Below are positions 1 through 18,991 of a stretch of DNA of 64,000 bases, in pieces. This DNA is from Candidatus Heimdallarchaeota archaeon (GTDB lineage: Archaea > Asgardarchaeota > Heimdallarchaeia > JABLTI01): NCBI GenBank assembly GCA_018238155.1, contig JABCTZ010000011.1:72454-136453 (forward strand), in the 5' to 3' direction. A model generated the notes under the pieces. The model searched no databases. It was not told the origin of the DNA and saw only the letters and a program-made list of their open reading frames with translations. Made by a program: the position numbers and the translations under genes. The first letter of the stretch is position 1. Every line of letters starts with the position of its first letter.

Positions 1-877
1 CTCTGAAATCTTCCAAACCATGAAATTCCATTATCTCATCGATAATCATTTTTGCTCCTTCATTATTGTTATAGAGAAAGTCTAATTTCTCTAGAAGAAA
101 TCTGGAAGCATGTGGTATTTCTTGAATATAGGAGGAAAATGTTCGAGCAACAGCTGTAATATATTCATCAATTTGATAATCAAGCGTCATGAATTCTAAT
201 AATGGATTAGCAATGAGTTCAAATTGATCGGGAAAATTGGAAAGACTGTCAATAGCTGATTCTTTGATATCAATGATCCAATATTCGGAATATTCTGGAT
301 CAAATGTATCATTAGTAGATATTATTGATGTTCCACCATCATGTCCAGCAAAGTAGGGGTCCTCAAAATAATGTTCGTCTAGGGCAAGGATTTGAAGAAA
401 AATGGGGATAAGTGATGGGTTTTTGTCAGTATGTGAAAGACGATTTAAAATCTCAGTAGATTCATAACGCATATCCATATGATTCTCTTTGTTAAGAATA
501 ATTCGACGAGAAATTTCAATACTTCTAGCTTGAAATTCTTTCATATGATAAAGAACATAAGCTAACCGATATAAAATATAAGGACATTCAGTATCATCCT
601 TCAAGAGATTAGTAACAAAAGAGGGTATGACTTGAGCTATTTCTATGATTTTTGCAATAATAAAAACTAAACATTTTCTATTGGTAACATCAACTTCCTG
701 TTCAAGCTGGGCTAACAGGAACTCAAAAATACTGGAAATAAAATCCGGCTTTATATTAATGGTTGAATTTTCAAAATATTGGAAATCAATCGCTAAAACA
801 TCTATTCCTATTGCTTCACAAAGCTGCTCAATAATTGCATCACCTTTATCATCAAATTGTAAAACTTCATCAATCAT
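1..877 (-). CDS. Hypothetical alpha-helical (HEAT-repeat-like) protein, runs off the window edge
   Basis: Manually read open frame from ATG at 877 (MIDEVLQFDDKGDAIIEQLCEAIGIDVLAIDFQYF...) with no stop before base 1; amphipathic helical repeats; absent from the ORF track because it is truncated. Confidence 0.65.
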   Translation of the reverse strand, partial: MIDEVLQFDDKGDAIIEQLCEAIGIDVLAIDFQYFENSTINIKPDFISSIFEFLLAQLEQEVDVTNRKCLVFIIAKIIEIAQVIPSFVTNLLKDDTECPYILYRLAYVLYHMKEFQARSIEISRRIILNKENHMDMRYESTEILNRLSHTDKNPSLIPIFLQILALDEHYFEDPYFAGHDGGTSIISTNDTFDPEYSEYWIIDIKESAIDSLSNFPDQFELIANPLLEFMTLDYQIDEYITAVARTFSSYIQEIPHASRFLLEKLDFLYNNNEGAKMIIDEIMEFHGLEDFR

Positions 878-1208
878 TAGAAATCCTCACTCTTTCCTAG
901 TGTTATCTTCTTTATAAAATACTAAATGAAAGCCAAAAATTAGTGAATTGTAATATCAGACAAAGAAAGGGAAAGAATATTTCTCATTTAAATATCAAAT
1001 GACTCTTTACTCCCTTTTTCTTTTATTTCAACAATTTTGTTTCTTTTTTCCCCTTCTACTTAATATAGAAATAAAAACAAAAATATTCCAGAGCTAAGTG
1101 TTACAAACATCTTAATTACACAATCTTAAAAAATATGGGAAACGATAAAAACATGCGGTGTAGGCACAAATTTTAATAATTTCTAAGCAATCAATATTTA
1201 GTATTTAA

Positions 1209-4145: not shown

Positions 4146-4236
4146 ACCTAAATATTTCTAGACACTCTTTAGAATTAAATCATTTGTCTACTTATTCTAA
4201 AAAAAGAGTCTACAAGAAGGAAAAGAGAAAAGAATG

Positions 4237-4263
4237 TGGCGGACACAGTAGAATATGAATCCA
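4237..4263 (-). repeat. Degenerate copy of the tRNA-Ala 3' end (putative att site / target duplication)
   Basis: tggcggacacagtagaatatgaatcca vs 17934-17960 tggtggaccggatggaatttgaatcca, 20/27 identical, same orientation, intergenic. Confidence 0.6.
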
Positions 4264-4273
4264 AGCTCTTTTG

Positions 4274-5143
4274 TTAAATATTAAATAGATCTTTATTTTC
4301 CTTCCCTTTTTTAGTAACATATTCCCTTTTTTCTTCATTATAATAAATAGTATCAATAGGTAGTATATCTTTAGGTATTGGAGTATTTGCTACTGGATTA
4401 ATATAGAGAGTTGCTTTCTTATCAGTCAATGTAAACGCATTTAAATTTGTAGTAATTAAGATAGCACTCACATCACGATTTCTGTAAAAAAAAGTGTTAT
4501 TTTTTTCATCATATTTTCCAATTTGACCTTCAATAATTAATTGTATCTCAGATTCTTCAATTGACATAACAAATCCATAAATAGCATCCTTAATTGTTTC
4601 ATTATCAATTGGTAATCCATTAGTACAGATATTCAAAGCTAAAATGTATGGTTTATTTTGTAAAGAATATTTTGCTGGGTGTTTTTTATTTATTGCAACT
4701 CTCAATATTTCAATTGGTCTTGTTTCGTGTATCGTTAAGGAACCAACTCTTCCTTCTTTTGTTTCCTGTTGTGATTTTTTTTTACTTACTTTTGCTTCAA
4801 GATAGAATTTAGTTTGTTTCCGTTTGGCATAAAAATCTGGAGTATTTTCCTCATTTTCTATATCCGGATGAATTTTAATATCATAACCACTTAAAAATAA
4901 CATCTCATGTAAATAGAGTTCAAATAGTGCTCCTCTATGAACTCCAATTTCATTTGCGATAAATCTTCGGTAAACCTCACAATTTATATTTTCGGGAAAT
5001 CTATTAAACCATTTTTGTAATCTAAATTTGACCTTAGTAATTTCTGAACTATCTGATTCAAGTAAACAACAATACTCAGAATCATTCTTTTTCTTCTCAT
5101 TACAATTTTCTTTTCGTTCTGAATTAAATAATTTAAGGTTCAC
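4274..5143 (-). CDS. PD-(D/E)xK nuclease-fold protein
   Basis: ALFELY...TPDFYAKRKQTKFYLEAK matches the E...PD...ExK restriction-endonuclease pattern. Confidence 0.65.
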   Translation of the reverse strand: MNLKLFNSERKENCNEKKKNDSEYCCLLESDSSEITKVKFRLQKWFNRFPENINCEVYRRFIANEIGVHRGALFELYLHEMLFLSGYDIKIHPDIENEENTPDFYAKRKQTKFYLEAKVSKKKSQQETKEGRVGSLTIHETRPIEILRVAINKKHPAKYSLQNKPYILALNICTNGLPIDNETIKDAIYGFVMSIEESEIQLIIEGQIGKYDEKNNTFFYRNRDVSAILITTNLNAFTLTDKKATLYINPVANTPIPKDILPIDTIYYNEEKREYVTKKGKENKDLFNI

Positions 5144-5151
5144 TGTTTTTC

Positions 5152-5322
5152 CTAATCCTTTGGATATGATATTTCAACTTCTTTAGTTATAAATATTAAA
5201 CCGTTGTCGTCTTGTAAGAAGATTAAATCATCTCCTTTACAAAGATCTAATTTATCTCTTACTGTTTTTGGTAATGTAATCTGACTTTTAGTTGCTAATT
5301 TAGCACTTCCGAGAAATTTCAT
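5152..5322 (-). CDS. AbrB/MazE/SpoVT-family DNA-binding protein (56 aa)
   Basis: Manually translated MKFLGSAKLATKSQITLPKTVRDKLDLCKGDDLIFLQDDNGLIFITKEVEISYPKD; QITLPxxVRxxLxLxxGD signature; below the ORF-track size cutoff. Confidence 0.85.
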   Translation of the reverse strand: MKFLGSAKLATKSQITLPKTVRDKLDLCKGDDLIFLQDDNGLIFITKEVEISYPKD

Positions 5323-5392
5323 TAATTGCACCTATATAATTATTTGATTCAAGTAAAATAAACCTTTCCTTAAAATCAATTAAAAATAACAA

Positions 5393-5410
5393 TATTGGTA
5401 AAACCCAATA
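5393..5410. promoter_or_regulatory. Palindromic operator candidate in the divergent promoter
   Basis: TATTGG-N6-CCAATA between the divergently transcribed abrB-like gene and 5466. Confidence 0.4.
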
Positions 5411-5465
5411 ATTTGGGAACCCCTTAAATAAAACCTTCTCCTATATATCTATAGGTGATAAGAAA

Positions 5466-7601
5466 ATGGCTCTAGTAATAAAAAACAAGATTTCTTCATA
5501 CACAAAAGAAAACAGAGTACTCATTTATCAAAAAGAGAAAAAAATTAGAGGTTCTCATTATAGTATTTATTCGGATGGAACAATAGAGATTAGAGGAAAG
5601 CTATTGAGTAGTACTAAATTTACTATACCAAAAGATTTGTTCCAATGGTTTGAAATCTCCAATCCATCAAGGATATTTTATGTGGAAATCAAATTGTTTC
5701 CAATAAACACCTATAGTGCTGATATTAAAGCACGGTTTTTATGCGAAAAATATGGAACCTTCATTCAATTTTTGGAACAGCTAGATCTAAAGATTGGAGA
5801 ACAAGTTTTATTTAAACTTGATTTTAGAAATTCGAATATCAAACCCACTCCTAAATTCCATAAAACACTAGCTTTGTTAGAATTACATTCCTTACCCTCT
5901 ATTGAAACTCTAACTTATCTTTTTACTGGCGGTAAAGGGAATCGCGAGTTCTCTCTCTATAAAGATAACAGAAATGTTCTTTTTGTAAAGGCTAATGGGA
6001 CGCTAAGAGATGGTGGTTCAGTCTCTCTGTCACAAGAATTGGGATATTATATTGAGGATTGGTTTGAAAAAGATCATTTAGTTTACGCTTCCAAGGATAA
6101 AGAAGAAGCAAAAATAATAGAATCTAGAATAATTCGAAAAAATACTACAAGACATCTTGAAAAATGCATCTATTTTCCTTATCAAGGGAAAAGTAAACCA
6201 ATTTCATTTGTGATCTCTTCCCATGAATTTCAGTTAACAAGAGATGCAATTCAAGACTTTGATATCAAACAATCTTTAACAGAAAAAGGAATATCAATAA
6301 GTCGTTTTAAATCACATTCTCTTTTAATTGGAAATCATTGTGATTATAAATTTGAGGCTAAAATTAGAAAAATTGCTCATCAATTCTCTTCGAATTATGA
6401 TTGGTTCAATTCTCCTGAGGTTTACTTAGAATTTAATAATCAAAATTATACCATTCAAGGAAATTTCAAAACAGTTGACAATATCATTACAGAAAGAAAC
6501 CTACTAAAAATACTACTAATGGAAATAAAGACATCTGATAAAAATTTAGGAAGTGAATTAGAATATGCTATTGCGAGTATATTACACACTAAAAGCATGT
6601 TTAATCGAGACTACGTTTTTCCTATTCTTTTTATCAACCAAGATACTAAACGATTGAATGGTAGTTTAATCATAACTGAAAATTTCGGTTTCTCTTGCGG
6701 AATTATACTTATTGGTCCCGAAAAGGCATCTTCCCTTCAAGAATCTCCTCAAAAATTATTGAGTATTTTGAATGATTACACTGAAAAAATGAATATTCTT
6801 TCCAAAGAACGGTCAAAACTAATTCATCCCATTTCAGGCAATATAACAACAAATATACTTCTGCAGAAAGAGGCATATCAACTTTTAGCTAATTCAAAAC
6901 TTTCTGAAAACAAGATAATTCCTATTTATTGTTTATTAATGGGAATTACTCTTACTGATTTTTGGTTATTATATAGATATTTTAGAGAATCAATTAATAA
7001 TTGTCAAATGCAAAACCAGAGTGATTTTGGTATTCTTCAAGATGTTGAAAAGAAATCACCAAATTTAGCAATTTTTGATTATTTACATAATCTTTTAGTG
7101 GAAAAGGGCTATTTTGCTCTTTTAGCGCTAAAATCAAAGTTACCTCAAAATGAAGACTTGCACATTCTTTTACAAAATCAAGATCTCATACTTGAAAGAT
7201 TCCCAGCTTGTATAAAAATTCGTGACATCTGGAAACGAAAGAGAGGTAAGGGAACTGCTTATGAACATGAAATAAGAAAGAAATTAATTAAGAATGGATA
7301 TCAAGTAGCTTCCAATGTTATGCTTTCAAATCTTAGTAAACCATTTGAAGTTGACCACTTAGCTTTTAAGAATAACGCAATTACTCTTGTAAGCTGTAAA
7401 GATAGACGAAATATATCTTATGAACCAGATCTTCCACATTTGATAAGAGAAGCAGCAAACGTTCTTGAGTTTCGCAAAAACCTTCTTAATATTGATACTG
7501 CAATTCTTTATGTAAAAGTCAACCCCAACTTCTTTCACAATCAACAATTACTGTTTGGACAGAAACCTTGGGTCAAAAATGTTGAAATAATAATTGAATG
7601 A
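5466..7601 (+). CDS. Large protein with two PD-(D/E)xK nuclease-like domains
   Basis: Internal KFEAKIR...TVDNII...LLMEIKTS and C-terminal GTAYEHEIRKKL...FEVDHLAF...LVSCKD (Mrr/NERD-like). Confidence 0.6.
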   Translation: MALVIKNKISSYTKENRVLIYQKEKKIRGSHYSIYSDGTIEIRGKLLSSTKFTIPKDLFQWFEISNPSRIFYVEIKLFPINTYSADIKARFLCEKYGTFIQFLEQLDLKIGEQVLFKLDFRNSNIKPTPKFHKTLALLELHSLPSIETLTYLFTGGKGNREFSLYKDNRNVLFVKANGTLRDGGSVSLSQELGYYIEDWFEKDHLVYASKDKEEAKIIESRIIRKNTTRHLEKCIYFPYQGKSKPISFVISSHEFQLTRDAIQDFDIKQSLTEKGISISRFKSHSLLIGNHCDYKFEAKIRKIAHQFSSNYDWFNSPEVYLEFNNQNYTIQGNFKTVDNIITERNLLKILLMEIKTSDKNLGSELEYAIASILHTKSMFNRDYVFPILFINQDTKRLNGSLIITENFGFSCGIILIGPEKASSLQESPQKLLSILNDYTEKMNILSKERSKLIHPISGNITTNILLQKEAYQLLANSKLSENKIIPIYCLLMGITLTDFWLLYRYFRESINNCQMQNQSDFGILQDVEKKSPNLAIFDYLHNLLVEKGYFALLALKSKLPQNEDLHILLQNQDLILERFPACIKIRDIWKRKRGKGTAYEHEIRKKLIKNGYQVASNVMLSNLSKPFEVDHLAFKNNAITLVSCKDRRNISYEPDLPHLIREAANVLEFRKNLLNIDTAILYVKVNPNFFHNQQLLFGQKPWVKNVEIIIE

Positions 7602-8050
7602 GAGTTAACTATATGAAACAAGATGTTCCTTTACTTGAAAGTTTATTCGGAACAAGTGATTTACCAACAATTGAAAAATATCTAACAGATGTAGAAGAAG
7701 AAACTAGAGCCAAAGCAATATGGGCATTAACGAAATTTTCTGTGGGGATAACTTTTGAACAAGTTAGAGAAGAATTAATATCTGCAAAAAAAGACCGAAC
7801 AAGGATTTTTCTAGCGGGAGCTTTATACCTTCTAAATTCTTCTTATCAATCACGAGAAATGATTTTCCTTTCCAAATATTATTTACAACATTATTTTGAT
7901 GTAGAAAAAGAAGAGTTAAAAGTTGATTTTACAGGAGATTATGGACGTTCAGCAATAGTCATAGGACTTATTCTCTGGGATGTGGGATATGAAATATTTG
8001 CAACAAATACCTTGGACTTTTACGGTTTAAATTGGCTAATTGAAAAATAA
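7598..8050 (+). CDS. Hypothetical HEAT-repeat-like protein
   Basis: ATGA overlap with the upstream gene; LTDVEEETRAKAIWALTKF resembles a HEAT unit. Confidence 0.55.
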   Translation: MRVNYMKQDVPLLESLFGTSDLPTIEKYLTDVEEETRAKAIWALTKFSVGITFEQVREELISAKKDRTRIFLAGALYLLNSSYQSREMIFLSKYYLQHYFDVEKEELKVDFTGDYGRSAIVIGLILWDVGYEIFATNTLDFYGLNWLIEK

Positions 8051-8102
8051 ACAGTTTTTCTTTTTCAATATCTGTTTTTGAAGTGGAGAATATAACACTA
8101 GA

Positions 8103-9737
8103 TTGGAAGTACATTTTGAAATGAACCAACAAAACTTTCTCACCTGGAAAACTGATCCATTTCTTATAGATCCAATACCCACAAGGAAAAATGATTGGTT
8201 AACTGCGAATAAGCTATTAGAACAAAAAGAGCAGTCAAAAATTTTCCTCAAAAATGATATCCTCAACCTTTATTCCATAATGGTTCGCAAAAACGATTTT
8301 CTTGCCGGAGAACGCCTTATTCAACGATTGCCTTATGTCTCTTTACCACCTGATTTAGCTTCTAGTTTGCGTAAACCGTCACTAAAATTAGCTGAGAGAT
8401 GCCATTACTATTTTCAAGATACTGCTATCAATTATTCTATCAAGAAGTGGCAGCAAAAGATTATTGATTATACGGAGAAGCAGCATCGACTACCATTTCC
8501 TTTATTTAGGATGAGTGATTTCTGGCAAGACTTTCTAATGCAAAAGTACGTTCCCTTCCAATCTGCACGAGGAGAAACCTTCCATTTACCAACTATTCTC
8601 TCTAAAGATTTAGCTTATTTCTTAGGAGTAGTTATTGGCGATGGTCATTTGAACTATTATAATATCGAATTAGTGGACTTTTCCCAAGAGCACACGATTA
8701 TGTTACAAAAATTAGCCATGAAATTATTTGGTATTGAGGGTGCAATTTCTGGTGAGAAAAAAGTGTGGTTGTTACATTTGAATAATAAATGGCTTGTACG
8801 GTTAGCTAATTTCCTAACGGATCAACCAATTACCGGGAAAAAATACCATGCTTTACGCGAACCACTTATTTTTACGTCGGATGAGAATCTTCGATGGGAA
8901 TTCTGGAATGGAGTATTAGATGCAGATGGCAGCTATAAATCACAGATCAATTTCTGTTCTTCATCAAAAAAATTCATAGAAGCATTTGGCTCATTTCTAG
9001 ATTCATACAATTTTGACTATAAAATACGAGAATTAACCTCTGACTTGGGGAATGGTTATTCTTTAAATATTAAAGCGAAACATAAACATTTTTTTAGCCA
9101 ATTCATACAACCAAGACATCCAATAAAGCAAGAAGATTTTTCACAGCACTTAAATCGTCAATCAAACAAAAATCTCAATAATCCTACATTCAAGCGTATG
9201 TATATTAAAGATATTAATCCTCAGACACTAGTTACTATTAATGATACTGCTTTTTTTAATTTCGAACTCATACCTATGCTCAATGTCACAAATTGCACCA
9301 GCTATTTACGAAAGTCTCGTGAAACTAACCAATGGACACAGCAAGATTTAGCTAATTTTCTAGAAATTCAAAAAGGACGATTAGCAGCATATGAATACAC
9401 CGGAAATCTCCCTATTGCTTATCTTGTCAAACTTCTTCCAATTATCCCTAAGAGTACTCCTCATTTAATGCTATTTCTAAAACGGAACAAACATAATTAT
9501 TTTCGTTCACGAAAAACAATTGCTAAGTTAGATCTAGAACCAACTAGTAGTTTGCTTTCTTTAATGAAATCATTAGTGTTCTGTAAGGATTATATTACGA
9601 TTAAAAATAAAAGACCAATTATTACTGAATTGAAAGACCAATTTGAAATAGAAATTGTGAAAAAGAATCTAATTAAAAATTCGGTTTTGCATCGATTTAT
9701 TAAAACATTTTTTTTGCTGAGTACAGAACGAGAATAA
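8103..9737 (+). CDS. Stand-alone double-motif LAGLIDADG endonuclease-like protein with XRE-type HTH
   Basis: LAYFLGVVIGDG and FWNGVLDADG motifs; LRKSRETNQWTQQDLANFLEIQKGRLAAYE HTH; likely start 8121. Confidence 0.85.
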   Translation: MEVHFEMNQQNFLTWKTDPFLIDPIPTRKNDWLTANKLLEQKEQSKIFLKNDILNLYSIMVRKNDFLAGERLIQRLPYVSLPPDLASSLRKPSLKLAERCHYYFQDTAINYSIKKWQQKIIDYTEKQHRLPFPLFRMSDFWQDFLMQKYVPFQSARGETFHLPTILSKDLAYFLGVVIGDGHLNYYNIELVDFSQEHTIMLQKLAMKLFGIEGAISGEKKVWLLHLNNKWLVRLANFLTDQPITGKKYHALREPLIFTSDENLRWEFWNGVLDADGSYKSQINFCSSSKKFIEAFGSFLDSYNFDYKIRELTSDLGNGYSLNIKAKHKHFFSQFIQPRHPIKQEDFSQHLNRQSNKNLNNPTFKRMYIKDINPQTLVTINDTAFFNFELIPMLNVTNCTSYLRKSRETNQWTQQDLANFLEIQKGRLAAYEYTGNLPIAYLVKLLPIIPKSTPHLMLFLKRNKHNYFRSRKTIAKLDLEPTSSLLSLMKSLVFCKDYITIKNKRPIITELKDQFEIEIVKKNLIKNSVLHRFIKTFFLLSTERE

Positions 9738-9797
9738 TGTTTAGAGATGGTTAAGAGTTCCTCTGTCATTTTGAAAAATTGAAGTATTTTGGAAATG

Positions 9798-9919
9798 CTC
9801 TCACAGCTCAGAAGTGAGAGTGAATGTTCTTGACCAAAACTCTATCGCTGAACGCTCCACTCGTGCGACCTAAAAGCCCACGCTTCGGTGGTCTTTTTTA
9901 ACGGTCGTCTTCGACACGA
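9798..9919 (+). ncRNA. Candidate structured RNA or DNA element
   Basis: GC-rich patch with nested stems CTCTCAC/GTGAGAG, TCGTG/CACGA, CGACC/GGTCG, AAAAG/CTTTT and a C(TTCG)G loop. Confidence 0.4.
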
Positions 9920-10092
9920 AAACCAGAGAGAAATCAAAGAGATGATTTTGTCGTGAAAAAATACCCAAGAAAGAACATGAAAATAGGAAAAAAAGCAGAA
10001 AAAGAGATTCTAAAGGGACTTAGAATAACCTTCCGCTATACAAAAAGAAGCCTTCTCCTGCCTTATTTTCAGGCTGATTTTTCGAGACTTTT

Positions 10093-10150
10093 TGTTTTTT
10101 GACGAATTCTTAACATACAGTAAATTCTTGTTTCTGTTTTTTGGCGAATT
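10093..10150 (+). repeat. Pair of 16-bp direct repeats (TGTTTTTTGRCGAATT), 42-bp period, upstream of the Cas1 operon
   Basis: 10093-10108 and 10135-10150, 15/16 identical. Confidence 0.55.
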
Positions 10151-10183
10151 TTGTGCTTTTTAAACAAAATTTGATAGAATTAG

Positions 10184-10822
10184 GTGAGAATAATGACTTT
10201 GGAATCATCTGTGACGCAAGAACAGCATATTCATAAGGATTTATCTAGTGCTAAAGTTAAAGTGACAAACACAGTTCAAACTTTCTGTAAATACTTAATT
10301 GACAGCGCATTGAATCATGGCAGATATTATTATCCTTCATTGAATACTTTCAAATTTGATGAGAAATTGACATTAGTCTCAAGAACAATAGATCGCTTAG
10401 TGAGATTTTTAGTTCAAGTTAATATTCTAACTAAATTAACACGATCGAAAACACAAGCTTATCAAGTCAATGTCAATAATCCATTATTCCACCTTATTTT
10501 GAGAATATATCATCCTGTTCATCCAATTACCATTTGTACAAAACAAGACATCATTTCAATAAAAAGAATTGAAGAACTACAAAGCGGTGTAGAGCACTTG
10601 AAACATGTTTTTAGTCTATTAGAATCAAAAGAGGATCATAGATTAGAACTTCATAGAGATTTGTTGGATGAAATAACTGAATATACTACAGTCTCAGATA
10701 TTTCAACAGAAGATCTAAAAGAGAAATTAAGGTCAATCATCTTAGGCTCTAGCACAAGTGCAGAGATTAACAACTTTTCCATATTAAATGAATTTTTGCT
10801 AGAGTATAACAAGGGGGATTAA
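10184..10822 (+). CDS. Winged-helix DNA-binding protein, first gene of the Cas1-like operon
   Basis: SRTIDRLVRFLVQVNILTKLTRSKTQAYQVN..NP wHTH recognition helix + wing. Confidence 0.65.
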   Translation: MRIMTLESSVTQEQHIHKDLSSAKVKVTNTVQTFCKYLIDSALNHGRYYYPSLNTFKFDEKLTLVSRTIDRLVRFLVQVNILTKLTRSKTQAYQVNVNNPLFHLILRIYHPVHPITICTKQDIISIKRIEELQSGVEHLKHVFSLLESKEDHRLELHRDLLDEITEYTTVSDISTEDLKEKLRSIILGSSTSAEINNFSILNEFLLEYNKGD

Positions 10823-10823
10823 T

Positions 10824-12389
10824 TTGGGATTCATAAACACTCTACCTAAAGCCATCACTACCGTTCTTCGAGATTATTCTTTTCCTTCTGGTGTTGATAA
10901 AGACACCATTCGCAAAGCTGTTAGGTGTGATGAAGACCTGCTTTTTGTTACACCAGATCTAGATGAGCAATTGCAGGTTGCAGTTACTTTAGCTCTTCTA
11001 AATGCTCGATTTGCCGACTCATCATCTATGATTATTGTGCGAACTTCTGATGATGCAAGAAAAATATACAGTATACTCAACCCACAACATCAGGTTAACG
11101 TTTCTAGTGATAGTGTAACAAATGAAACTATTTCTCCACCAATAGATAAATATGCCATTCGTGTTGCTTCCACTTTTTCCAAATTTAAGGGAAATAGCTT
11201 CTCTTCAGCTAATGATTGTATAATAATTACAAGCTATGATTGCTTGCTTCGAAATTTACTCTATCGAAAAAGTTCCGAAGTGGATTTAAAGAACAGAATT
11301 ACTTTACCACATACAAATGCCTATATTTTCGTTGACCCATTTGGCGAAAATAGATCTCTACGAAGAGCTTTAGAGAGCTTCATAACTTTTGATATAGATA
11401 GCATATTGTTTTTCAAGAGAAGAACAAATAACCTTAACATCAGAATGCATTATATCTCACCTGGCATAGTTTCTTTAGATGAACAGAAGAATATGCTAAA
11501 AGTAACATCAACAGTCAAAATTTCTGGAAATCTTGAGCTTGACTTTAGTTTTTCAACGGATAGACATGACATTAGAGAAAATCTCCAATCTGTTCTACCA
11601 TATTTAATGTTATTAAGACTTTATTCTGGGCATCCAACTAAAAAACAATTAACACGTCGAGTGCAAAATTCGGTTAATTATCGTTTACTTCAAAACACTC
11701 ACGAATCAAAAACTAATCCTGAATTTCTTCAGGAAGTTTTAATTGAGACATTGTTTCAATCAACTGATTCTACTGAATGCTTATTTGAATCGTATCAGCA
11801 AAGTCTTGGAAAATTCGCTCTTGCATTAAGAGCTAATGGAAATTCAGGAAAATATATCCTCACACCATTTGGCAAGAAGTTTCTCATAGCCTCAACATAT
11901 TTTAAAGAAATACAAGATGATCCCATTAGTGTTATATTGGATATTAAAAACAGAACACAGAATGATATTCTAGATTGGAACAGCATCTCAGAAATATTCC
12001 ATAATTTTACTAATGGAAAATTAGCTTACGATGATCTGCAAATACTGCTAGGGATATTAAAAACAGAAGCGAATGTTGAAGATGAGACAATTGCTAACAT
12101 TCTATCCAGAACACAAGATAGTTATTCTGTTTTTAAAGTCTGTAGATTACTTGCAAGCTTTCAGGATCATATGACACCTGAAGCAAAAAAGAGCTTCAAT
12201 ATCATTAGCAAGGCATTAGGGCAAAATCTTGACACAGTAAATGAACCGTTAGTAGGAAAGAAAGATAGATTAGCAATCGAGCAAGCGATAAAAGAAGAAC
12301 TAGAATTTGCTACAGATCCAATGACAAAAGCACAAATTGCTCTAAATCTCTCATTATTGAGTTCTGATGTAAAACAAGCAATTGGTTAA
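10824..12389 (+). CDS. Inactivated Hel308/Ski2-like SF2 helicase derivative; probably continuous with 12382-12897 through a +1 frameshift
   Basis: Degenerate motifs in the correct order: LLFVTPDLDEQLQVA (Walker A lost), IIVRTSDDARKIY (Ia), IIITSYD (Ib), IFVDPF (DExH lost), MHYISPGI (SAT lost); YILTPFGK winged helix; ends in the middle of an HTH. Confidence 0.6.
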   Translation: MGFINTLPKAITTVLRDYSFPSGVDKDTIRKAVRCDEDLLFVTPDLDEQLQVAVTLALLNARFADSSSMIIVRTSDDARKIYSILNPQHQVNVSSDSVTNETISPPIDKYAIRVASTFSKFKGNSFSSANDCIIITSYDCLLRNLLYRKSSEVDLKNRITLPHTNAYIFVDPFGENRSLRRALESFITFDIDSILFFKRRTNNLNIRMHYISPGIVSLDEQKNMLKVTSTVKISGNLELDFSFSTDRHDIRENLQSVLPYLMLLRLYSGHPTKKQLTRRVQNSVNYRLLQNTHESKTNPEFLQEVLIETLFQSTDSTECLFESYQQSLGKFALALRANGNSGKYILTPFGKKFLIASTYFKEIQDDPISVILDIKNRTQNDILDWNSISEIFHNFTNGKLAYDDLQILLGILKTEANVEDETIANILSRTQDSYSVFKVCRLLASFQDHMTPEAKKSFNIISKALGQNLDTVNEPLVGKKDRLAIEQAIKEELEFATDPMTKAQIALNLSLLSSDVKQAIG

Positions 12390-12897
12390 TATTAAAAAAA
12401 ATAGTTCGTTACCACTAAAAACTGTTACAGGAAAACCACCAATAGGGAGAAATGTTACGTACTATTCTACAAAAGAAATCCCAGAGCATTTCTATAAAAA
12501 ATGCGGTGACTGTTACTATTTTAGCAAAAATTATTGCATTTTCTGGCGACGAGTGAAAGAGACTGCAGAGCGAAAAGTCCCAAAAGACAAAATGGGCTAT
12601 ATTTCAACCTCAATTCTTAGAAAAAATACTGTTGCCTGTGAAGCATTTCTAGAAGTAGAAACAATGGTGATACATTTCACTATTGATGAATTCAATAAAA
12701 CAGTAACAAAAAGATTTGATGGCTATACTGAAGATGGGGAGGAAAAATTTACTCATTTTTGCCCAATCTGTAGTAAGCAAGGAGAAATGGTACCGCTAAA
12801 GGCATTAGGCAATGCTGCGTTTCCTCAGCAGGGATCAACTCCGACAAGATGTCCAAGATGTGGTTCATCATTTAAGCTTTATCAGGAAAGAAATTGA
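12382..12897 (+). CDS. wHTH wing plus Cys-rich/Zn-ribbon domain (C-terminal part of the upstream gene)
   Basis: GRNVTYY wing; CGDC..C..C cluster and CPIC...CPRC Zn ribbon. Confidence 0.65.
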   Translation: MVNIKKNSSLPLKTVTGKPPIGRNVTYYSTKEIPEHFYKKCGDCYYFSKNYCIFWRRVKETAERKVPKDKMGYISTSILRKNTVACEAFLEVETMVIHFTIDEFNKTVTKRFDGYTEDGEEKFTHFCPICSKQGEMVPLKALGNAAFPQQGSTPTRCPRCGSSFKLYQERN

Positions 12898-12913
12898 AAC
12901 ATTTAGTAGTTAA

Positions 12914-14419
12914 GTGATAAAAATGACTGAAAAAAATACTGGAAAACAACAAATAAAATGTGTGAAAGATAGCAGTCATATACTTTATGACCGGATATAC
13001 AATTTAACAGGTTTGGCAGCTGAAGAGATAGAAGAAGCAAGAACTAATTTAGGAACTCCTATTTATCAAGGCTATGATGTACGATTGATCGATGATGATC
13101 TGTTTATTGGAGATGTAAGGTATAAACTAAAGGATATTAAATTCATCTTTGATTATGCAGGCATTCAAGAAGAGATTAAACAACGATTGCTTGATTATGG
13201 CTGTTATTATGAACGGAAAACTAATTTGAGTGGATGGTTTAATGTCGAAAGAATCGAGCCAAAAAGAGCTGTTTATGTTGATGCTATTAGATTAAGCAAT
13301 GGGTTCAACAATCTCTATCTAAAATCAGTGATCAAGAGTGACCTTAGCATTATCTTCGCACTGCAAGGAATGATACCCGATCAAAGAGTGCTAAAGAAGT
13401 ATGTAGATAAAATTGGTGATGCATATCTCTATGGCTATCACAGTCATGCAAATAAGCTATGCAATTCAGCAGAAGGTTTAGCAGCAGATGTTCTCTGGGA
13501 ATTCACTAACAAGCTGATAGAACCTTACAACTTTAAAATAAGTAATCGAATTTCTGACCGACTCTGCCAATTGAGACGCATGGTTGGAAATTATAGCAGT
13601 ATGGCAAAAACAGCTACAGATGCCTTATTTAACACCACATACCAACTCTTTGAGGAAGAAATATGGAAGATTCTTGAAGAGAAAAAAATTAATTATTTGG
13701 GAGTTGGCGGTTTTTCACATTTCAGTTATTATTCAGACCTTTCTTGGATGGGATTGCCATTAGATCTTGGTGATGCATTAAAGAAAGGAGGGCACTATAC
13801 ATTAGTCGATACTATATTAGCTGAAGAAATAACTCATGAAGATATTAAGCGGCTAACTGCATTCAAAGGAGAGGATAATTATACTGTTACGAAATATGGG
13901 TGTGACATCCTCTATGAGAAGAAGGAAGAACTTTTCGAAAGCTCATGCTTTTATCGTGGGAAACAATATTCATCTTTTAGAGAAGCTTGCAGGGAAGAAA
14001 TTGACAAATTTGATCGCCTATTATCGAATATCGGTGATAGATTAGAAGAGGAGCATCTGTCTATTAAAAGCCCTGATCTAGGGAATAATTTAGCCGTTAA
14101 ACTCTGGCGATTAACGTTAGACTGGGAATATTTGCCAGCAAAATTGAGGGAGAACCTGGGAGAAAGTGTTTTTCAAATATGTCAAGAAGAGATCCAAAAG
14201 CTTGACTTTCAGCCATTAGTATGGATGCGATCGAAACACATAGAACAAAGAGTGAATCAGGAAATTGCTAATTTTGAGGAACTTGCATTCTTATTTACTG
14301 ATAGGGAAGAAAAGCACCACCAAAAACATGGCAGAAAAATCGGTCAATTATCACCAATCACTAAAGAATTCAGTGAAACATTATTGGAGTTACCTGTATC
14401 ATGGATAAACTTGGAGTAA
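12914..14419 (+). CDS. cas1: Highly diverged Cas1-family integrase/endonuclease (solo, Asgard-type)
   Basis: NSAEGLAA (E), ATDALFNTTY (NxxLNxxY equivalent), GVGGFSH (H), GLPLDLGD (D..D), later FYRGKQY..EA; order and spacing match the Cas1 catalytic helical domain; likely start 12923. Confidence 0.75.
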   Translation: MIKMTEKNTGKQQIKCVKDSSHILYDRIYNLTGLAAEEIEEARTNLGTPIYQGYDVRLIDDDLFIGDVRYKLKDIKFIFDYAGIQEEIKQRLLDYGCYYERKTNLSGWFNVERIEPKRAVYVDAIRLSNGFNNLYLKSVIKSDLSIIFALQGMIPDQRVLKKYVDKIGDAYLYGYHSHANKLCNSAEGLAADVLWEFTNKLIEPYNFKISNRISDRLCQLRRMVGNYSSMAKTATDALFNTTYQLFEEEIWKILEEKKINYLGVGGFSHFSYYSDLSWMGLPLDLGDALKKGGHYTLVDTILAEEITHEDIKRLTAFKGEDNYTVTKYGCDILYEKKEELFESSCFYRGKQYSSFREACREEIDKFDRLLSNIGDRLEEEHLSIKSPDLGNNLAVKLWRLTLDWEYLPAKLRENLGESVFQICQEEIQKLDFQPLVWMRSKHIEQRVNQEIANFEELAFLFTDREEKHHQKHGRKIGQLSPITKEFSETLLELPVSWINLE

Positions 14420-14640
14420 TGCTCTTTTTGCTAAAGGAGTACAATGAATTTGGCACTATTCATCCAAAGAGCGCAAAAGAGATCTCTATAGAGGTGGAAT
14501 TGGCTCCCAGTGAAACATATCTTACTCTTGAGACATTACAGCAAGATGGATTGATCTGGCGAGTGGGTAGGAAAAATCTTTACAGGTATGGTATTAAGGA
14601 AGAATCTTTAGCTCATCTAAACAAGCTATTCTCTGCTTAA
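14419..14640 (+). CDS. Small winged-helix protein (TrmB/ArsR-like)
   Basis: SAKEISIEVELAPSETYLTLETLQQDGLIWRVGRKNLYRY; TAATG overlap with the cas1-like stop. Confidence 0.75.
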   Translation: MLFLLKEYNEFGTIHPKSAKEISIEVELAPSETYLTLETLQQDGLIWRVGRKNLYRYGIKEESLAHLNKLFSA

Positions 14641-14654
14641 TTAATGGTAAACAA

Positions 14655-14951
14655 TTGCCGTCTGAGATGTTAATTGATTATCAGAAGCTTGATGAAGTAG
14701 CAGAAAATTATGAGAAGAAGTTTGAGATAGAGAAACAAGAAGGGCTCCTTGTGAAGGAGATCAAGGCATTGCTTAGTCAACTGGTCTTTATTGAATATAA
14801 TAACCGATTCGACATGATTGATTCAGCTGTTGATGATATTGTTGAGGCTTGTTCTCCTGAAAATTTAGATGAAAAATTCGAGCAATTTTTAGAGGATAAG
14901 CTTGAATCAATTTGGGAATATATTATCAGTGCAAGATTGGTGGAGGGATAA
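14655..14951 (+). CDS. Small acidic helical hypothetical protein
   Basis: 98 aa, D/E-rich, operonic spacing. Confidence 0.6.
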   Translation: MPSEMLIDYQKLDEVAENYEKKFEIEKQEGLLVKEIKALLSQLVFIEYNNRFDMIDSAVDDIVEACSPENLDEKFEQFLEDKLESIWEYIISARLVEG

Positions 14952-14954
14952 GGA

Positions 14955-17282
14955 ATGTCTCGAGGAATTCTTGTAAAATCGGTTTTTGATTTGCCACCAT
15001 CAGTGTGTAAAGTATCTGATTGCTATGTAGGCGATGACGAAGTTGGATTAGAGAATATAGGAAAAAGTATCCAAGAGCTATTCTCACACAAGCTCTACTC
15101 TTATCAATTAGAAGCAATTAGAACTGTACTCAAAGGAAATGATTGTTTCCTTGCTGTTGGAACAGGTTCTGGAAAATCTGAAGCATTTTTATTCCCAATT
15201 TTGGAGGATATCGTTGCCGGAAAAATTAATTGTGCGATTATAATTTATCCAACAAAACAACTAGCAGAGGATCAAGAACAACGCATTGCAAAATACTGCA
15301 ATAAGATTCATGAAACGACCGGCAAAAGAATTACTTACAGTAGGTACAATGGTGATTTAACTCGAAAGGAAATTGACTTTGTAGAAAAAAGTAAACCAAA
15401 TATTATTCTTGCAACTATTGACAAATTATTTTATCGTTTCTTTAAGGAAGGCAATGAAGACTTTCTTGATTGGCTGCTCAATGCTGGTGCTTTCGTTGTT
15501 GATGAGATTCATGCCGGCTCAGGAGGATATTTAGATCATGTTCGAGAAATAATTTCAATCTTGAAAAAGATTAATCCAACTTTAAGAGTTATTCTTGCTT
15601 CCGCTACTGTAAAGGAAGTGGAAACTTTTCGCGATAAATTTCTCCCATCAGCTCAAATAATTACAGGAAATGCTACAAGAGGTTCTGTTAGAGTGATGAT
15701 TCTTCAGCCAGAGTCAATAGAAGATCTGCTTTTGGAAAAGATAGACCCCTATTTGTGCAAAGTAAAAGGAGTTTGCGTAATTTTTGTTGATGATATTCGA
15801 AAGGTAGGTGAGTTGGTTGCAAAATGTAATGAACTGTATAAGAAAAAAACAAACATACCTGATGAAATCCTAAGAATACATTCACCATTTGCTTGCATTA
15901 ATAGTCAGTTAAATAGTCAAGAGAAAACATACGTTGTAAAAGGAGTTCATAATGGTACAATTAGGTTTGTGTTTACAACGTCCTTATTGGAACTGGGGAT
16001 GGACATACCAAATATCGTTCATATAATAAATATTTCTTGGCCCATTACGGGAGTTAATGGTCTATTGCAACGATTGGGGAGATTGCGATTTGTAGACCTT
16101 TCCGAGAAAAAGAATTTCTCATTAGTGCTAAATCCAGAAAGAACAATTGATGAATATTACTTGAGCCATCCTGAAAAAATAGAAGAAATCATGATGAAAA
16201 ACAAGACTGAACGAATATTATTTGACTCAAAATCATTGCAAAGAGCACAAGCATTCGTTCTCTTAAGACTTGTTCTTGGTGTAACTAAAATTAAAGATAT
16301 CTTATCCCTATGCACAGATGAGCTAGATAACGGAATTACACGAACCGCAATATCATTACTTTTCGCCAAAGGTTTGTTATCAACTGAAAATCATCACTTG
16401 CCGTTTCTGGAAAGAACCTTAATTATAGCAGAAAGAAATGAAGTTAATGCTTTTATTCGAAAGCATCGTATTCGCTCAACTGAATACCAATGGGAAATAA
16501 TACTGAAGAATTCCAAAAATCAAGAAGAAAAAATCGCTTCAATAGATGAACGACGAATAATCTTTTCAGCTTTGCAAAGGAATTTGTTACATCTAGGAAG
16601 CAAAGGGAATGTTTTTCGAGTAAAAAGTTTGACTAATGAAAAAGTGTTCGTTGAAAAGCTAAATATCATCAAAACAAATATTGAACGAAACAAAGTAAAG
16701 CCACCAATTTTTATTATCGATGGTCAATCTAGAACGCAGCAATTTGAACAGCTAAATATTAGATTTGGAAGGATGATCATTCGCTGGGAAACAAGTGAAA
16801 TAAAGGAATATTCTCGAGATGGACAATTACTTGAAAACCAAATGAAAAAGTCAACTCAAGGAAATGACACATTAGTAGTTACTGATAATGAAAAGCGTCA
16901 AAATCACATTTGGGATGAAAAAACAAGTGGAGTGCTCATAGAATTTGTGAACATCTCAAAAGCTCTTACCAACAAACAAAAGAAACAATCACTAAGGCTA
17001 TTTAGAGAATTACTGGTGAAAAGTATTGAGCTAGAGCTTCACATCTCAGAATCATCATTTCGCACATATTTGAATAATTTTGAAAACAAAATTGCTCTTT
17101 ATGATCGAGGTGGGGAGCTGGGAAATGCTGAAGCAGTTTTCACACAAATAAAACGAGTGCTAAAGCACATGCTCAGCTTATTGCTTGAGAATACAAACGA
17201 CTCTATACTCCCTCTAGTTGGCAATATCTCGGAAAAATCAATAGAAATAACCAAAAAAATGTTAGAGGAGATGGTAAAGTAA
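14955..17282 (+). CDS. YprA/Hrq1/MrfA-like DEAD/DEAH-box helicase with degenerate DUF1998-like C-terminus
   Basis: LYSYQ, GTGSGKS, IYPTKQLAEDQ, DEIH, SAT, TTSLLELGMDI, QRLGR; IALYD..G.G near the C-terminus but no terminal Cys cluster. Confidence 0.85.
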   Translation: MSRGILVKSVFDLPPSVCKVSDCYVGDDEVGLENIGKSIQELFSHKLYSYQLEAIRTVLKGNDCFLAVGTGSGKSEAFLFPILEDIVAGKINCAIIIYPTKQLAEDQEQRIAKYCNKIHETTGKRITYSRYNGDLTRKEIDFVEKSKPNIILATIDKLFYRFFKEGNEDFLDWLLNAGAFVVDEIHAGSGGYLDHVREIISILKKINPTLRVILASATVKEVETFRDKFLPSAQIITGNATRGSVRVMILQPESIEDLLLEKIDPYLCKVKGVCVIFVDDIRKVGELVAKCNELYKKKTNIPDEILRIHSPFACINSQLNSQEKTYVVKGVHNGTIRFVFTTSLLELGMDIPNIVHIINISWPITGVNGLLQRLGRLRFVDLSEKKNFSLVLNPERTIDEYYLSHPEKIEEIMMKNKTERILFDSKSLQRAQAFVLLRLVLGVTKIKDILSLCTDELDNGITRTAISLLFAKGLLSTENHHLPFLERTLIIAERNEVNAFIRKHRIRSTEYQWEIILKNSKNQEEKIASIDERRIIFSALQRNLLHLGSKGNVFRVKSLTNEKVFVEKLNIIKTNIERNKVKPPIFIIDGQSRTQQFEQLNIRFGRMIIRWETSEIKEYSRDGQLLENQMKKSTQGNDTLVVTDNEKRQNHIWDEKTSGVLIEFVNISKALTNKQKKQSLRLFRELLVKSIELELHISESSFRTYLNNFENKIALYDRGGELGNAEAVFTQIKRVLKHMLSLLLENTNDSILPLVGNISEKSIEITKKMLEEMVK

Positions 17283-17283
17283 A

Positions 17284-17955
17284 ATGCCTGATACAGTAAT
17301 AATTGGTGATGTTCATCTTGGAGCAGATGGTTGTTTAAAGGAGGAATTCAAAGAAGCACTGCTGAGCGTTGCAGAAGAAGTGGATCTAATTCTATTCAAT
17401 GGTGACTTTATCGATAATTATGGAGAGAAGGGAAAAAAAGCTCTTGAACAATTCTTAGAATGGATAGACAATAAAAGTTGGAAAGAAAAAATAGTCTTCA
17501 TAACTGGTGGTATGGGTCACGAGGGAAATATTCTATTTGATTGTCCTACAATTCAAATTTTGCCTTGGGCAATTTTAAACACAAAAGAAGGGCGAATTAT
17601 TGTCTGTCATGGACATAATATTGGTCTGGTGAAAAAAGATGATGAGACGTGGGTAGAAGCATCCTGTCGACTTAAGCAGCGCTTAGTGCGCAATGGTTCT
17701 GAGTTCTTGCCAGAGATTTTATCGACAGACAAGATTATTATCAGCCACACTCATGTACCATTTTACAAAATGGATAATGGTATGTTTGCAACAGGGGGAT
17801 GGCGAATAAAAGAGGACTGGTCTGAGGACTATATCAGAAGGAATGTTGGAGTGTTTATCATAATAGATGATGAAGATAGAGATGACCCAATAAAAATGAA
17901 AAGATGGTTAAATGATAAAAAGGGAAGAAAAATTGGTGGACCGGATGGAATTTGA
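17284..17955 (+). CDS. Calcineurin-like metallophosphoesterase
   Basis: GDVHLG, NGDFID, GHE, CHGH, SHTH motifs; last 22 nt are antisense to the tRNA-Ala 3' end. Confidence 0.85.
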   Translation: MPDTVIIGDVHLGADGCLKEEFKEALLSVAEEVDLILFNGDFIDNYGEKGKKALEQFLEWIDNKSWKEKIVFITGGMGHEGNILFDCPTIQILPWAILNTKEGRIIVCHGHNIGLVKKDDETWVEASCRLKQRLVRNGSEFLPEILSTDKIIISHTHVPFYKMDNGMFATGGWRIKEDWSEDYIRRNVGVFIIIDDEDRDDPIKMKRWLNDKKGRKIGGPDGI

Positions 17956-18041
17956 ATCCATGGCCTCCTCAATTTTTTTCTTATAGGACGCATCCTTTAA
18001 GATTGCAAATGAGGCGATCTACCAGTCTGATCTACCGGCCC
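17934..18041 (-). tRNA. tRNA-Ala(UGC) with a 31-nt intron at canonical position 37/38 (intron 17973-18003), encoded CCA
   Basis: GGGCCGG/CCGGTCC acceptor with G3:U70, GATC D-stem, CCTCA/TGAGG anticodon stem, TGC anticodon, TTCAAAT T-loop, ACCA end. Confidence 0.93.
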
Positions 18042-18118
18042 TGTTAGTTATTTTTTTTGAGTATGTTTCTCTTTTTGAATCTTTGTATTAGGAAATTCTT
18101 TCTTCTTTTTCTTTCTTT

Positions 18119-18991
18119 TTACTTTGCATAAGTTACTATTATTAATACATTTAGCAGTACATGTCCTACTGATACGCCAAAGATATTTTCTGTTTCCATT
18201 ACTGTTATTCCTGTTAGCACTCCTGATACTATAATGAATATTATTGAATTGCCCACTCCAATATAATTTTGCAACCAGAAGAATTCTTGTATATGTCCAC
18301 CTAGCCAGGCAATATTTTGTAGAATGAATCCTAATATTTTCCCGCTTTTTATCTCCAGAGCTCCTTTAAACAGTTTCAGTGAACCTTTTGCTTGGCTAAA
18401 TTGTATTTGTATGAATGCTTTTGAATAGAATTCGAAAACAAGGACATTTATTGCAAAGAACGCTATTAGAGTCACCCACTCCCCTGGTCCAAAAAGAAAA
18501 TAACTTATCTGATTTACATTTGTCAAATATTTTTGTGAAAGTAGTATCCAAGGGTAAAATAGTCCTGCGTGCATTACACACCCTTGTATTAAGCTGCTTA
18601 TGACTTTCTTTGTAGACATTCCTTTTTTCGTTGCCAAAAAGAAATATTTTGCTTTGCCCGTTTTTATTTGAAAAACAGTTAAATAAATTATTGGGACCAC
18701 TACAAAACAAATTAATGCTAAAAAAACATGAAAATAATATTCGCTTCCAAACATCTCAAAATGTCCAAGATATTCTACTGGAAAATAAATGGCTAAAGCA
18801 ATTATTCCAACAATAATATTAGCGATCACTGCGTCTTTCAAGCTTAACTCATTCGTTTTATCTCCCTCAAAATAAAATTCCATCACTCGAGTAGATTTTA
18901 TTTGATGTGCAGTAACAGAAGTGTCTGTTTTTTTTTCCGACATTTGGTCTGTTCCTTTTTGACCCTTAGATATTTCTTCTGCTTTTGTCAT
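18119..18991 (-). CDS. CPBP (CAAX protease-like) intramembrane protein
   Basis: Multiple TM helices; FEFYSKA, WLGGH, GHVLLN motifs. Confidence 0.6.
   Translation of the reverse strand: MTKAEEISKGQKGTDQMSEKKTDTSVTAHQIKSTRVMEFYFEGDKTNELSLKDAVIANIIVGIIALAIYFPVEYLGHFEMFGSEYYFHVFLALICFVVVPIIYLTVFQIKTGKAKYFFLATKKGMSTKKVISSLIQGCVMHAGLFYPWILLSQKYLTNVNQISYFLFGPGEWVTLIAFFAINVLVFEFYSKAFIQIQFSQAKGSLKLFKGALEIKSGKILGFILQNIAWLGGHIQEFFWLQNYIGVGNSIIFIIVSGVLTGITVMETENIFGVSVGHVLLNVLIIVTYAK

Follow-up and report, generated by a model that had tools for sequence, protein, structure and literature searches.

A divergent Cas1-like protein in the youngest, tRNA-proximal cassette of a Heimdallarchaeota genomic island

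To our knowledge, Cas1 is known as an integrase in two settings only, CRISPR adaptation and the casposons, and although diverged Cas1 homologues have been catalogued in Asgard archaea, we know of none with a tested function. The DNA considered here, a stretch of 64,000 nucleotides from a Candidatus Heimdallarchaeota archaeon (hereafter the window), carries the gene for such a protein in a 13.7-kb cassette that abuts a tRNA-Ala gene. Casposases are described to insert at the 3' ends of tRNA genes, where they read the T-arm, and to insert in tandem (PMC9939771). Extremely diverged Asgard homologues of Cas1, some of them predicted to reside in new mobile elements, are attributed to Makarova et al. 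(2020) in the summaries available in PMC8730458 and PMC9939771.

The window corresponds to positions 72454-136453 of contig C11 in the AT-rich genome G000 (4.08 Mb, 90.7% complete). Other G labels denote genomes of congeners, C labels contigs and X1 to X4 metagenome contigs, and positions given without a contig are those of the window. According to the original prediction, the 13.7 kb between a degenerate tRNA repeat and the tRNA-Ala gene are an old site-specific insertion, possibly catalysed by the Cas1 homologue and by now fixed.

The tRNA-Ala island and its repeats

The integration target is the tRNA-Ala(TGC) gene at 17934-18041 on the minus strand, recognized by Rfam (52.7 bits) and by ARAGORN with its intron option. 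The default settings of ARAGORN overlook this gene, which bears a 31-nt intron (17973-18003). In four congeners (G078, G080, G074 and G072) the site is empty, with the stop codon of an Arf-like GTPase gene approximately 28 nt from an intron-less tRNA-Ala(TGC) gene, and an Arf/Rag-like GTPase gene is also found at the flank of the island in G000. Since the GTPase gene is joined directly to the tRNA gene in the four congeners, C11:65383-90387 (25 kb) is inserted DNA. The intron is present in both genomes with an occupied site (G000 and G077) and absent from the four empty-site congeners and from an X1 contig.

Two copies of the tRNA 3' end that are better preserved than the one in the window, and have the same orientation, lie approximately 7 kb (C11:65383; 27/27, with 30 nt identical) and approximately 3 kb (C11:69366; 25/27) to the left of it. 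Together with the repeat inside the window, these relics split the island into three cassettes, one with a UvrD gene, one with SBBP, peptidase-like and MmeI-like genes, and the 13.7-kb cassette with the Cas1-like gene, and show that successive insertions at the tRNA gene gave rise to the island. Positions 4264-17933 constitute its tRNA-proximal and youngest cassette. The four empty sites bear out the predicted insertion at the tRNA-Ala 3' end, but the inserted unit is the 25-kb serial array, of which the 13.7 kb are the proximal cassette, and the empty-site junction, expected at approximately position 4263, actually joins the tRNA gene to C11:65383. It had also been considered that an integrase with a perfect att site to the left of the window might explain the whole island; a perfect att copy does lie there, but no integrase accompanies it.

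The repeat inside the window (4237-4263) indeed matches the last 27 nt of the tRNA gene (17934-17960) at 20/27 positions in direct orientation. CCA, the T-loop and the A53-U61 pair are kept, and a T/C-rich tract follows in the tRNA sense. With this tail, the degenerate tRNA-Ala 3'-half relic occupies 4207-4266 on the minus strand and forms the distal boundary of the proximal cassette. Taken alone the match is weak, with approximately two to four such matches per genome expected by chance on extrapolation from the counts at 16-19 matches, and it could be argued that it arose by chance and that the 13.7 kb are ordinary chromosome. However, a 68-column profile built from the sister relics only, the 4237-4263 copy being excluded, retrieves 4207-4266 at 17.7 bits with a genome-wide E-value of 0.0067. 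Among 8.16 million genome positions scanned on both strands, 22 sites match the 27-mer of the tRNA-Ala 3' end at 20 or more positions, and almost every one of these is a tRNA gene or a sister relic. No other tRNA matches 4237-4263 better, and its best 27-mer matches are the other tRNA-Ala relics (22/27 to the copy at C11:69366); it shares orientation and extended similarity with these sister relics. Moreover, the relic lies at a break in identity to G077, and the whole region is missing from the four congeners. A chance match is therefore highly improbable, and on sequence comparison the repeat is confirmed as a real scar.

The relics keep a few bases of the intron 3' end, so the repeat starts at the border between the intron and the 3' exon. 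The T/C-rich tract after each relic was considered as a clean end of the element and rejected, as the empty sites are also T-rich after the tRNA gene. Two alleles of the T-stem are seen: the outermost relic (C11:65383-65412) and the tRNA gene (17934-17963) share a 30-nt identical block with the ATGGA/TCCAT stem, and the two inner relics have GTGGA/TCCAC, as do the tRNA gene and the relics of G077. Relic 4237-4263 is nearest to this second allele. The pattern is not explained by simple proximal insertion followed by decay; it may reflect gene conversion or a recent event that affected the island in its entirety. Nor does it follow from the decay of the repeat that the element is now fixed, because the relic is closest to another repeat allele and because relatives show turnover.

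The closest relative, G077, has flanks that are 82-86% identical and, at this same tRNA gene, an island of 24.5 kb that contains relics of its own. Identity between the two genomes is 92.7% to the left of the window's relic, in the MmeI segment, and 65-80% to the right of it, the proximal-cassette genes themselves being 65-70% identical. At the switch, 132 unrelated bases in G077 take the place of the relic and a 289-aa gene in G000. As an X1 contig also breaks synteny, at 4213, the relic is a real recombination boundary. A metagenome contig of 43 kb (X4) has lost 11.9 kb from inside the cassette, so that 5926 is linked to 17800 with a microhomology of 5 nt, and the Cas1-like gene of G077 has an in-frame stop. 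Relics of the phosphoesterase end of the cassette lie beside old repeats in G077 and at C11:66136-66321, and the junction between the phosphoesterase and tRNA genes is conserved in an independent X3 contig. The other side of the tRNA gene is also variable, an X3 contig having 1166 additional bases directly before the tRNA 5' end (18041-18049). No circular junction or precise excision joint was found among the contigs of four metagenome runs over 3600-18400, where shares were low and the result is uninformative on absence.

The Cas1-fold protein and its element family

The Cas1 homologue of the proximal cassette is a 501-aa protein encoded at 12914-14419 on the plus strand. It has no match in Pfam, PADLOC, NCBIfam, the PDB sequences or the ESM Atlas features, and the Pfam model Cas_Cas1 (PF01867) finds nothing in a scan of the open reading frames (ORFs) or in a six-frame search at E<=1. 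Its assignment comes from the AlphaFold (AF2) model (predicted local distance difference test, pLDDT, 68; predicted template modelling score, pTM, 0.66), which has the two domains of Cas1, an N-terminal beta domain and an alpha-helical catalytic domain. The top 50 Foldseek matches of the model are all Cas1 proteins or casposases (best casposase 6opm, E 5.7e-8). VIA gave Z scores of 15.2-18.3 to seven Cas1 and casposase entries and 4.8 to the next unrelated chain; six of the seven superpose over 227-245 residues with a root-mean-square deviation (rmsd) of approximately 3 A, and the seventh, 2yzs_B (Z 17.1), over 270 residues with an rmsd of 11.4 A. Residues E187 (AEG.AA), H269 (GGFSH) and D284 (LDL.D) are invariant in 20 homologues, an assignment based on motifs and not on superposition of active sites.

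Sequence links to other Cas1 proteins are distant. The family profile has only 25 matches among 1.84 billion representative proteins, the homologues coming from metagenome-assembled genomes of Heimdallarchaeota, and hhalign of the family against the canonical Cas1 of G000 was not significant, with a probability of 2% and only the E motif aligned. One of the 25 matches, P0034, scores E 1.2e-4 to PF01867 and provides a transitive link to the Pfam family. A second form of the protein (627-638 aa) fuses a winged helix and a Zn-ribbon to the Cas1-like domain, and hhalign aligns it with the 501-aa form at E 2.8e-6 with the E/H/D motifs in register. On the predicted structure, the 501-aa protein is a genuine, very divergent Cas1-fold protein, as had been supposed from the window alone, and judging from its motifs it is apparently catalytically intact.

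The two forms are found in 5 and 9 of the 10 congeners, respectively, and in none of 72 genomes representing 17 other genera of the class; G000 alone has eight Cas1-like loci. Each form has its own gene order. In type A, a LAGLIDADG gene is followed by genes for proteins of 212 and 521/171 aa, the Cas1-like protein, a 98-aa protein, a helicase and a phosphoesterase. Type B consists of genes for LAGLIDADG, Cas4-like, 222-aa, Zn-ribbon-Cas1-like and 190-aa proteins. A pair of genes for 711- and 150-aa proteins often accompanies either type.

Homologous cas1 loci do sit at tRNA 3' ends, in at least 9 of the 15 clusters with assessable ends. In G000, the distance to the tRNA gene is 0 nt at tRNA-Ala(TGC) (C11), 62 nt at tRNA-Ala(GGC) (C43) and 5 nt at a tRNA with anticodon GAC (C13), and the C6 cluster adjoins tRNA-Leu(TAG). 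Among the congeners, the neighbours are tRNA-Ala(TGC) at approximately 125 nt in G077, tRNA-Pro(TGG) at 64 nt (G075:C33), tRNA-Lys(CTT) at approximately 100 nt (G076:C145), a tRNA-Lys(CTT) with a T-loop intron (G075:C84) and tRNA-Glu(TTC) at approximately 490 nt (G075:C19). The C17 cluster of G000 was considered as part of an island at tRNA-Ala(CGC) and rejected, as PfkB, topoisomerase and Ldh_2 genes intervene.

Two of the clusters are clean elements. In C6 of G000, tRNA-Leu(TAG) and a 42-nt direct repeat (37/42) enclose an 8-kb type B cluster together with an Orc1/Cdc6 gene, and the site is empty in G079 (flank 91% identical), G078, G080 and G076. In G075:C33, a 14.2-kb type A cluster with the same layout as that of C11 lies between tRNA-Pro and a 28/35 repeat, with a further repeat 1 kb beyond. 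These clusters show discrete insertions bounded by tRNA 3'-half repeats without a standard integrase, and they support mobility. The comparisons show that the proximal cassette of the window belongs to a genus-restricted family of approximately 8-14-kb elements at the 3' ends of many tRNA genes.

Some of the target tRNA genes are themselves unusual. T-loop introns occur in two island-adjacent tRNA genes (G000:C21:101013-101149 and G075:C84:50-165), which are missed by standard tRNA finders, and the relics downstream of the former (102449 and 104097) resemble the spliced, intron-less tRNA. They bring to mind the proposal that tRNA genes are shielded from integration by introns. Beyond the C13 cluster lie two partial copies of the last type B gene (G000:C13:176276-176581 and 178495-178815), 66-86% identical to the C43 gene, apparently the remnants of earlier insertions at that tRNA gene.

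Candidate enzymes for the insertion

The original prediction had found no tyrosine or serine recombinase and no DDE enzyme between the two repeat copies, and the same was found here when all ORFs were scanned with Pfam, NCBIfam, PADLOC and PHROGs. Every copy of the element encodes the Cas1-like protein, beside a LAGLIDADG-type protein, and no other member of an integrase family. As the only integrase-like enzyme present it is a plausible catalyst of the insertion, and we put the probability that it is the integrase at roughly 0.45; this role is unproven because the repeats look like classical att sites. As the integrase, the Cas1-like protein would be guided by a Zn-ribbon/winged-helix partner and perhaps by the LAGLIDADG protein, and each new insertion would push the older cassettes outward, where they would decay by deletion and mutation.

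Several observations weigh against such a role. The repeats (35-45 nt) run from the 3' strand of the anticodon stem, or from the intron/3'-exon border, to CCA and sometimes include the T/C-rich tail. A repeat extending from the anticodon arm to the 3' end is reportedly, following Williams in 2002, the textbook att site of tyrosine integrases. Casposons make a duplication of 14-15 bp, whereas the repeats here measure at least 27 nt (tRNA-Ala), 42 nt (tRNA-Leu) and 35 nt (tRNA-Pro), and terminal inverted repeats above background were found in none of nine cassettes tested in addition to that of the window. Relics of different loci are more alike than they are like their own partners. At tRNA-Leu, the distal copy and its flank resemble the empty-site allele and the tRNA copy differs, as would be predicted if the element carried its own attP; the pattern fits a 3' half brought in by the element, although the copies may instead have drifted apart after a duplication. 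The same kind of repeat bounds cassettes without a Cas1-like gene, namely an ABC-transporter cassette in C17 and small cassettes in C43 and G075. The partner proteins resemble those of defence or repair (Can2-like nuclease, Lhr/Cas3-like helicase, phosphoesterase, Cas4-like nuclease), and the island also holds MmeI-like, PD-T7-5-like and UvrD genes. No tRNA gene was found beside 6 of the 15 clusters (C19, C42 and two loci of C17 in G000, G074:C235 and G075:C106); tRNA genes with odd introns are easily missed, e.g. that of G075:C84, and G074:C235 may hold a degenerate relic. Finally, given the genome completeness of 90.7%, an integrase could be encoded on a plasmid or virus that escaped binning.

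It is also conceivable that the Cas1-like cluster is cargo, i.e. a CRISPR-derived defence or DNA-processing system within a defence island linked to tRNA genes, the cassettes having been inserted by a conventional tyrosine integrase acting in trans or since lost. The att anatomy of the repeats, the allelic variants of the relics, the empty-site allele at the distal end of the tRNA-Leu element, the cassettes without Cas1-like genes and the defence-like neighbours all speak for it; in addition, the genes of the system diverge far faster than the flanks, and the Cas1-bearing ARAMP loci of Asgard archaea are read as defence systems (PMC8730458). However, a tyrosine recombinase was matched on no island contig examined, either in G000 or in the congeners. 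G077 has a single PF00589 match genome-wide, yet its tRNA-Ala site holds five relics and its tRNA-Leu site an island of 22 kb, and the two PF00589 matches of G000 are not near tRNA genes; no serine or SSV-type integrase was found in G000. Furthermore, the clusters have a fixed polarity, the last gene mostly lying 0-125 nt away from the end of the tRNA gene, an arrangement that passive cargo would not usually show, and the 8-kb tRNA-Leu element has a replication initiator and no room for a standard integrase. The cargo explanation is a serious one, although we doubt that it is correct.

The LAGLIDADG-type protein itself might cut the tRNA 3' region, the element then being copied in by break repair or homing and the Cas1-like protein having some other role. 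A gene for a LAGLIDADG-like protein with a helix-turn-helix (HTH) domain flanks every Cas1-like cluster examined, with approximately 10 paralogues in G000, and for the Heimdallarchaeum element HeimM2 an enzyme of this type has been suggested to direct site-specific integration (PMC8813620). Homing, however, does not duplicate the target as direct repeats, the protein matches Pfam weakly and its catalytic role is putative, and WhiA-type domains are often merely DNA binders. We consider this explanation improbable, and the protein is a second candidate for site recognition beside the Cas1-like protein, which we keep as the preferred candidate for the integrase.

Cassette genes and comparison with known systems

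The proximal cassette opens at its distal end with a 289-aa ORF for a PD-T7-5/PD-T7-1-like defence protein (4274-5143, minus strand; PADLOC 2e-08, phrog_8571) that is absent from G077. A 711-aa nuclease with two PD-(D/E)xK (NERD/Hjc-like) domains (5466-7601, plus strand as are all following genes; Pfam NERD, AF2 pLDDT 83) precedes its 150-aa partner (7598-8050), the C43 paralogue of which has a weak HEAT-like match; the two genes co-occur in C43, C13, G077 and G075. The 711-aa protein was considered as a hidden recombinase and rejected, the best Foldseek matches of its AF2 model being to Can2, with a fold near Can2/Can1. The 544-aa LAGLIDADG-like and HTH protein follows (8103-9737; Pfam LAGLIDADG_3, tblastn). 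The first gene of the type A operon is the 212-aa ORF (10184-10822), conserved in relatives and without a family match, and next are the 521-aa and 171-aa (Zn-ribbon) ORFs (10824-12897), separated by a frameshift near 12380. They form a single gene for 665-692 aa in G076, G074 and G075, and the Zn-ribbon part is the one that type B has joined to its Cas1-like protein. Contigs from X1 and X2 are one base shorter at 12380; in G000 the reading frame was broken either by a true frameshift or by misassembly of an A/T run.

Downstream of the Cas1-like gene are two small ORFs of 79 and 98 aa (14401-14951), the latter conserved in relatives, a 775-aa DEAD/DEAH helicase with an Lhr-, BrxH- or Cas3-like core (14955-17282; Pfam DEAD and Helicase_C, PADLOC, NCBIfam) and a 223-aa metallophosphoesterase (17284-17955; Pfam Metallophos), the last 22 nt of which, including the stop codon, are antisense to the tRNA 3' end. 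An inverted pair of 17 nt (16/17) has its left arm at 4295-4311 and its right arm, at 17917-17933, abutting the tRNA end; none of 1500 random pairs reaches 16/17. The pair encodes the Lys/Gly-rich C-termini of the outward-reading 289-aa ORF and phosphoesterase. Beyond the relic, positions 1-4206 belong to the older cassette (C11:69393-76689), of which they make up the right part; the left boundary of this cassette is the 25/27 relic. It carries the MmeI-like restriction-modification gene (1449-4145, plus strand; Pfam MmeI domains), and it also encodes SBBP beta-propeller and CarboxypepD_reg/peptidase-C13-like proteins (L001:16969-19651; window 2-877).

What the present loci add to the known diverged Cas1 homologues is the systematic position of the clusters at tRNA 3' ends, the anatomy of the repeats, the empty and filled sites and the serial arrays. 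They also offer handles, i.e. defined tRNA 3'-half targets, element ends, empty and filled sister sites and a small number of candidate proteins. If the Cas1-like protein is the inserting enzyme, the family would represent a third Cas1-based mobility system, with CRISPR-sized repeats around gene cassettes. If it is not, Cas1-containing defence cassettes would be moved by an unseen integrase, which would explain how defence islands of the Heimdall group are assembled at tRNA genes.

With the tRNA islands of tyrosine integrases (pNOB8/SSV-type) the loci share direct repeats of the tRNA 3' half, serial decaying relics and empty sites in relatives, but no integrase gene is present in any cassette or island examined and there are very few in the genomes. 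The aCas1/ARAMP loci of Asgard archaea resemble them in having a diverged Cas1, no CRISPR array and, in one form, a Cas4-like gene, while the loci described here lack RAMP (Cas5/Cas7) genes, a comparison drawn with the ARAMP loci as summarized in PMC8730458.

The similarity to casposons (family 2, Aciduliprofundum boonei and Methanosarcina mazei) consists in a Cas1-family enzyme as the sole integrase candidate, insertion at tRNA 3' ends with the T-arm in the site, tandem insertions and a patchy, multi-copy distribution (PMC9939771). Unlike casposons, the elements have no PolB, a domain found in no ORF of 4274-17955 or of the C43 element, their terminal inverted repeats are inconsistent, and their Cas1 is too diverged for the Pfam model. 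The partners differ as well, being LAGLIDADG and Zn-ribbon/winged-HTH proteins together with either a helicase and phosphoesterase or a Cas4-like nuclease.

CRISPR arrays also combine a Cas1-family enzyme with repeats of 35-45 nt that share one orientation and adjoin a fixed leader, which here would be the body of the tRNA gene. In contrast to CRISPR arrays, the units between the repeats are kilobase gene cassettes and not spacers of 30-40 nt, the repeats are derived from tRNA and are not identical, and there is no effector and no Cas2, the latter unmatched in the Pfam and NCBIfam scans of the cassette ORFs; no CRISPR repeat array was found in window positions 1-22000. A bolder proposal, which we regard as unlikely, is that these are new PolB-less Cas1-dependent elements in which a highly diverged Cas1 and its Zn-ribbon/winged-HTH and LAGLIDADG partners insert kilobase DNA at tRNA 3' halves with a duplication of approximately 40 nt beside the tRNA leader, giving arrays of cassettes between tRNA-half repeats. 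Were it true, a PolB-less Cas1 system of this kind would be a living intermediate that links casposons to CRISPR arrays.

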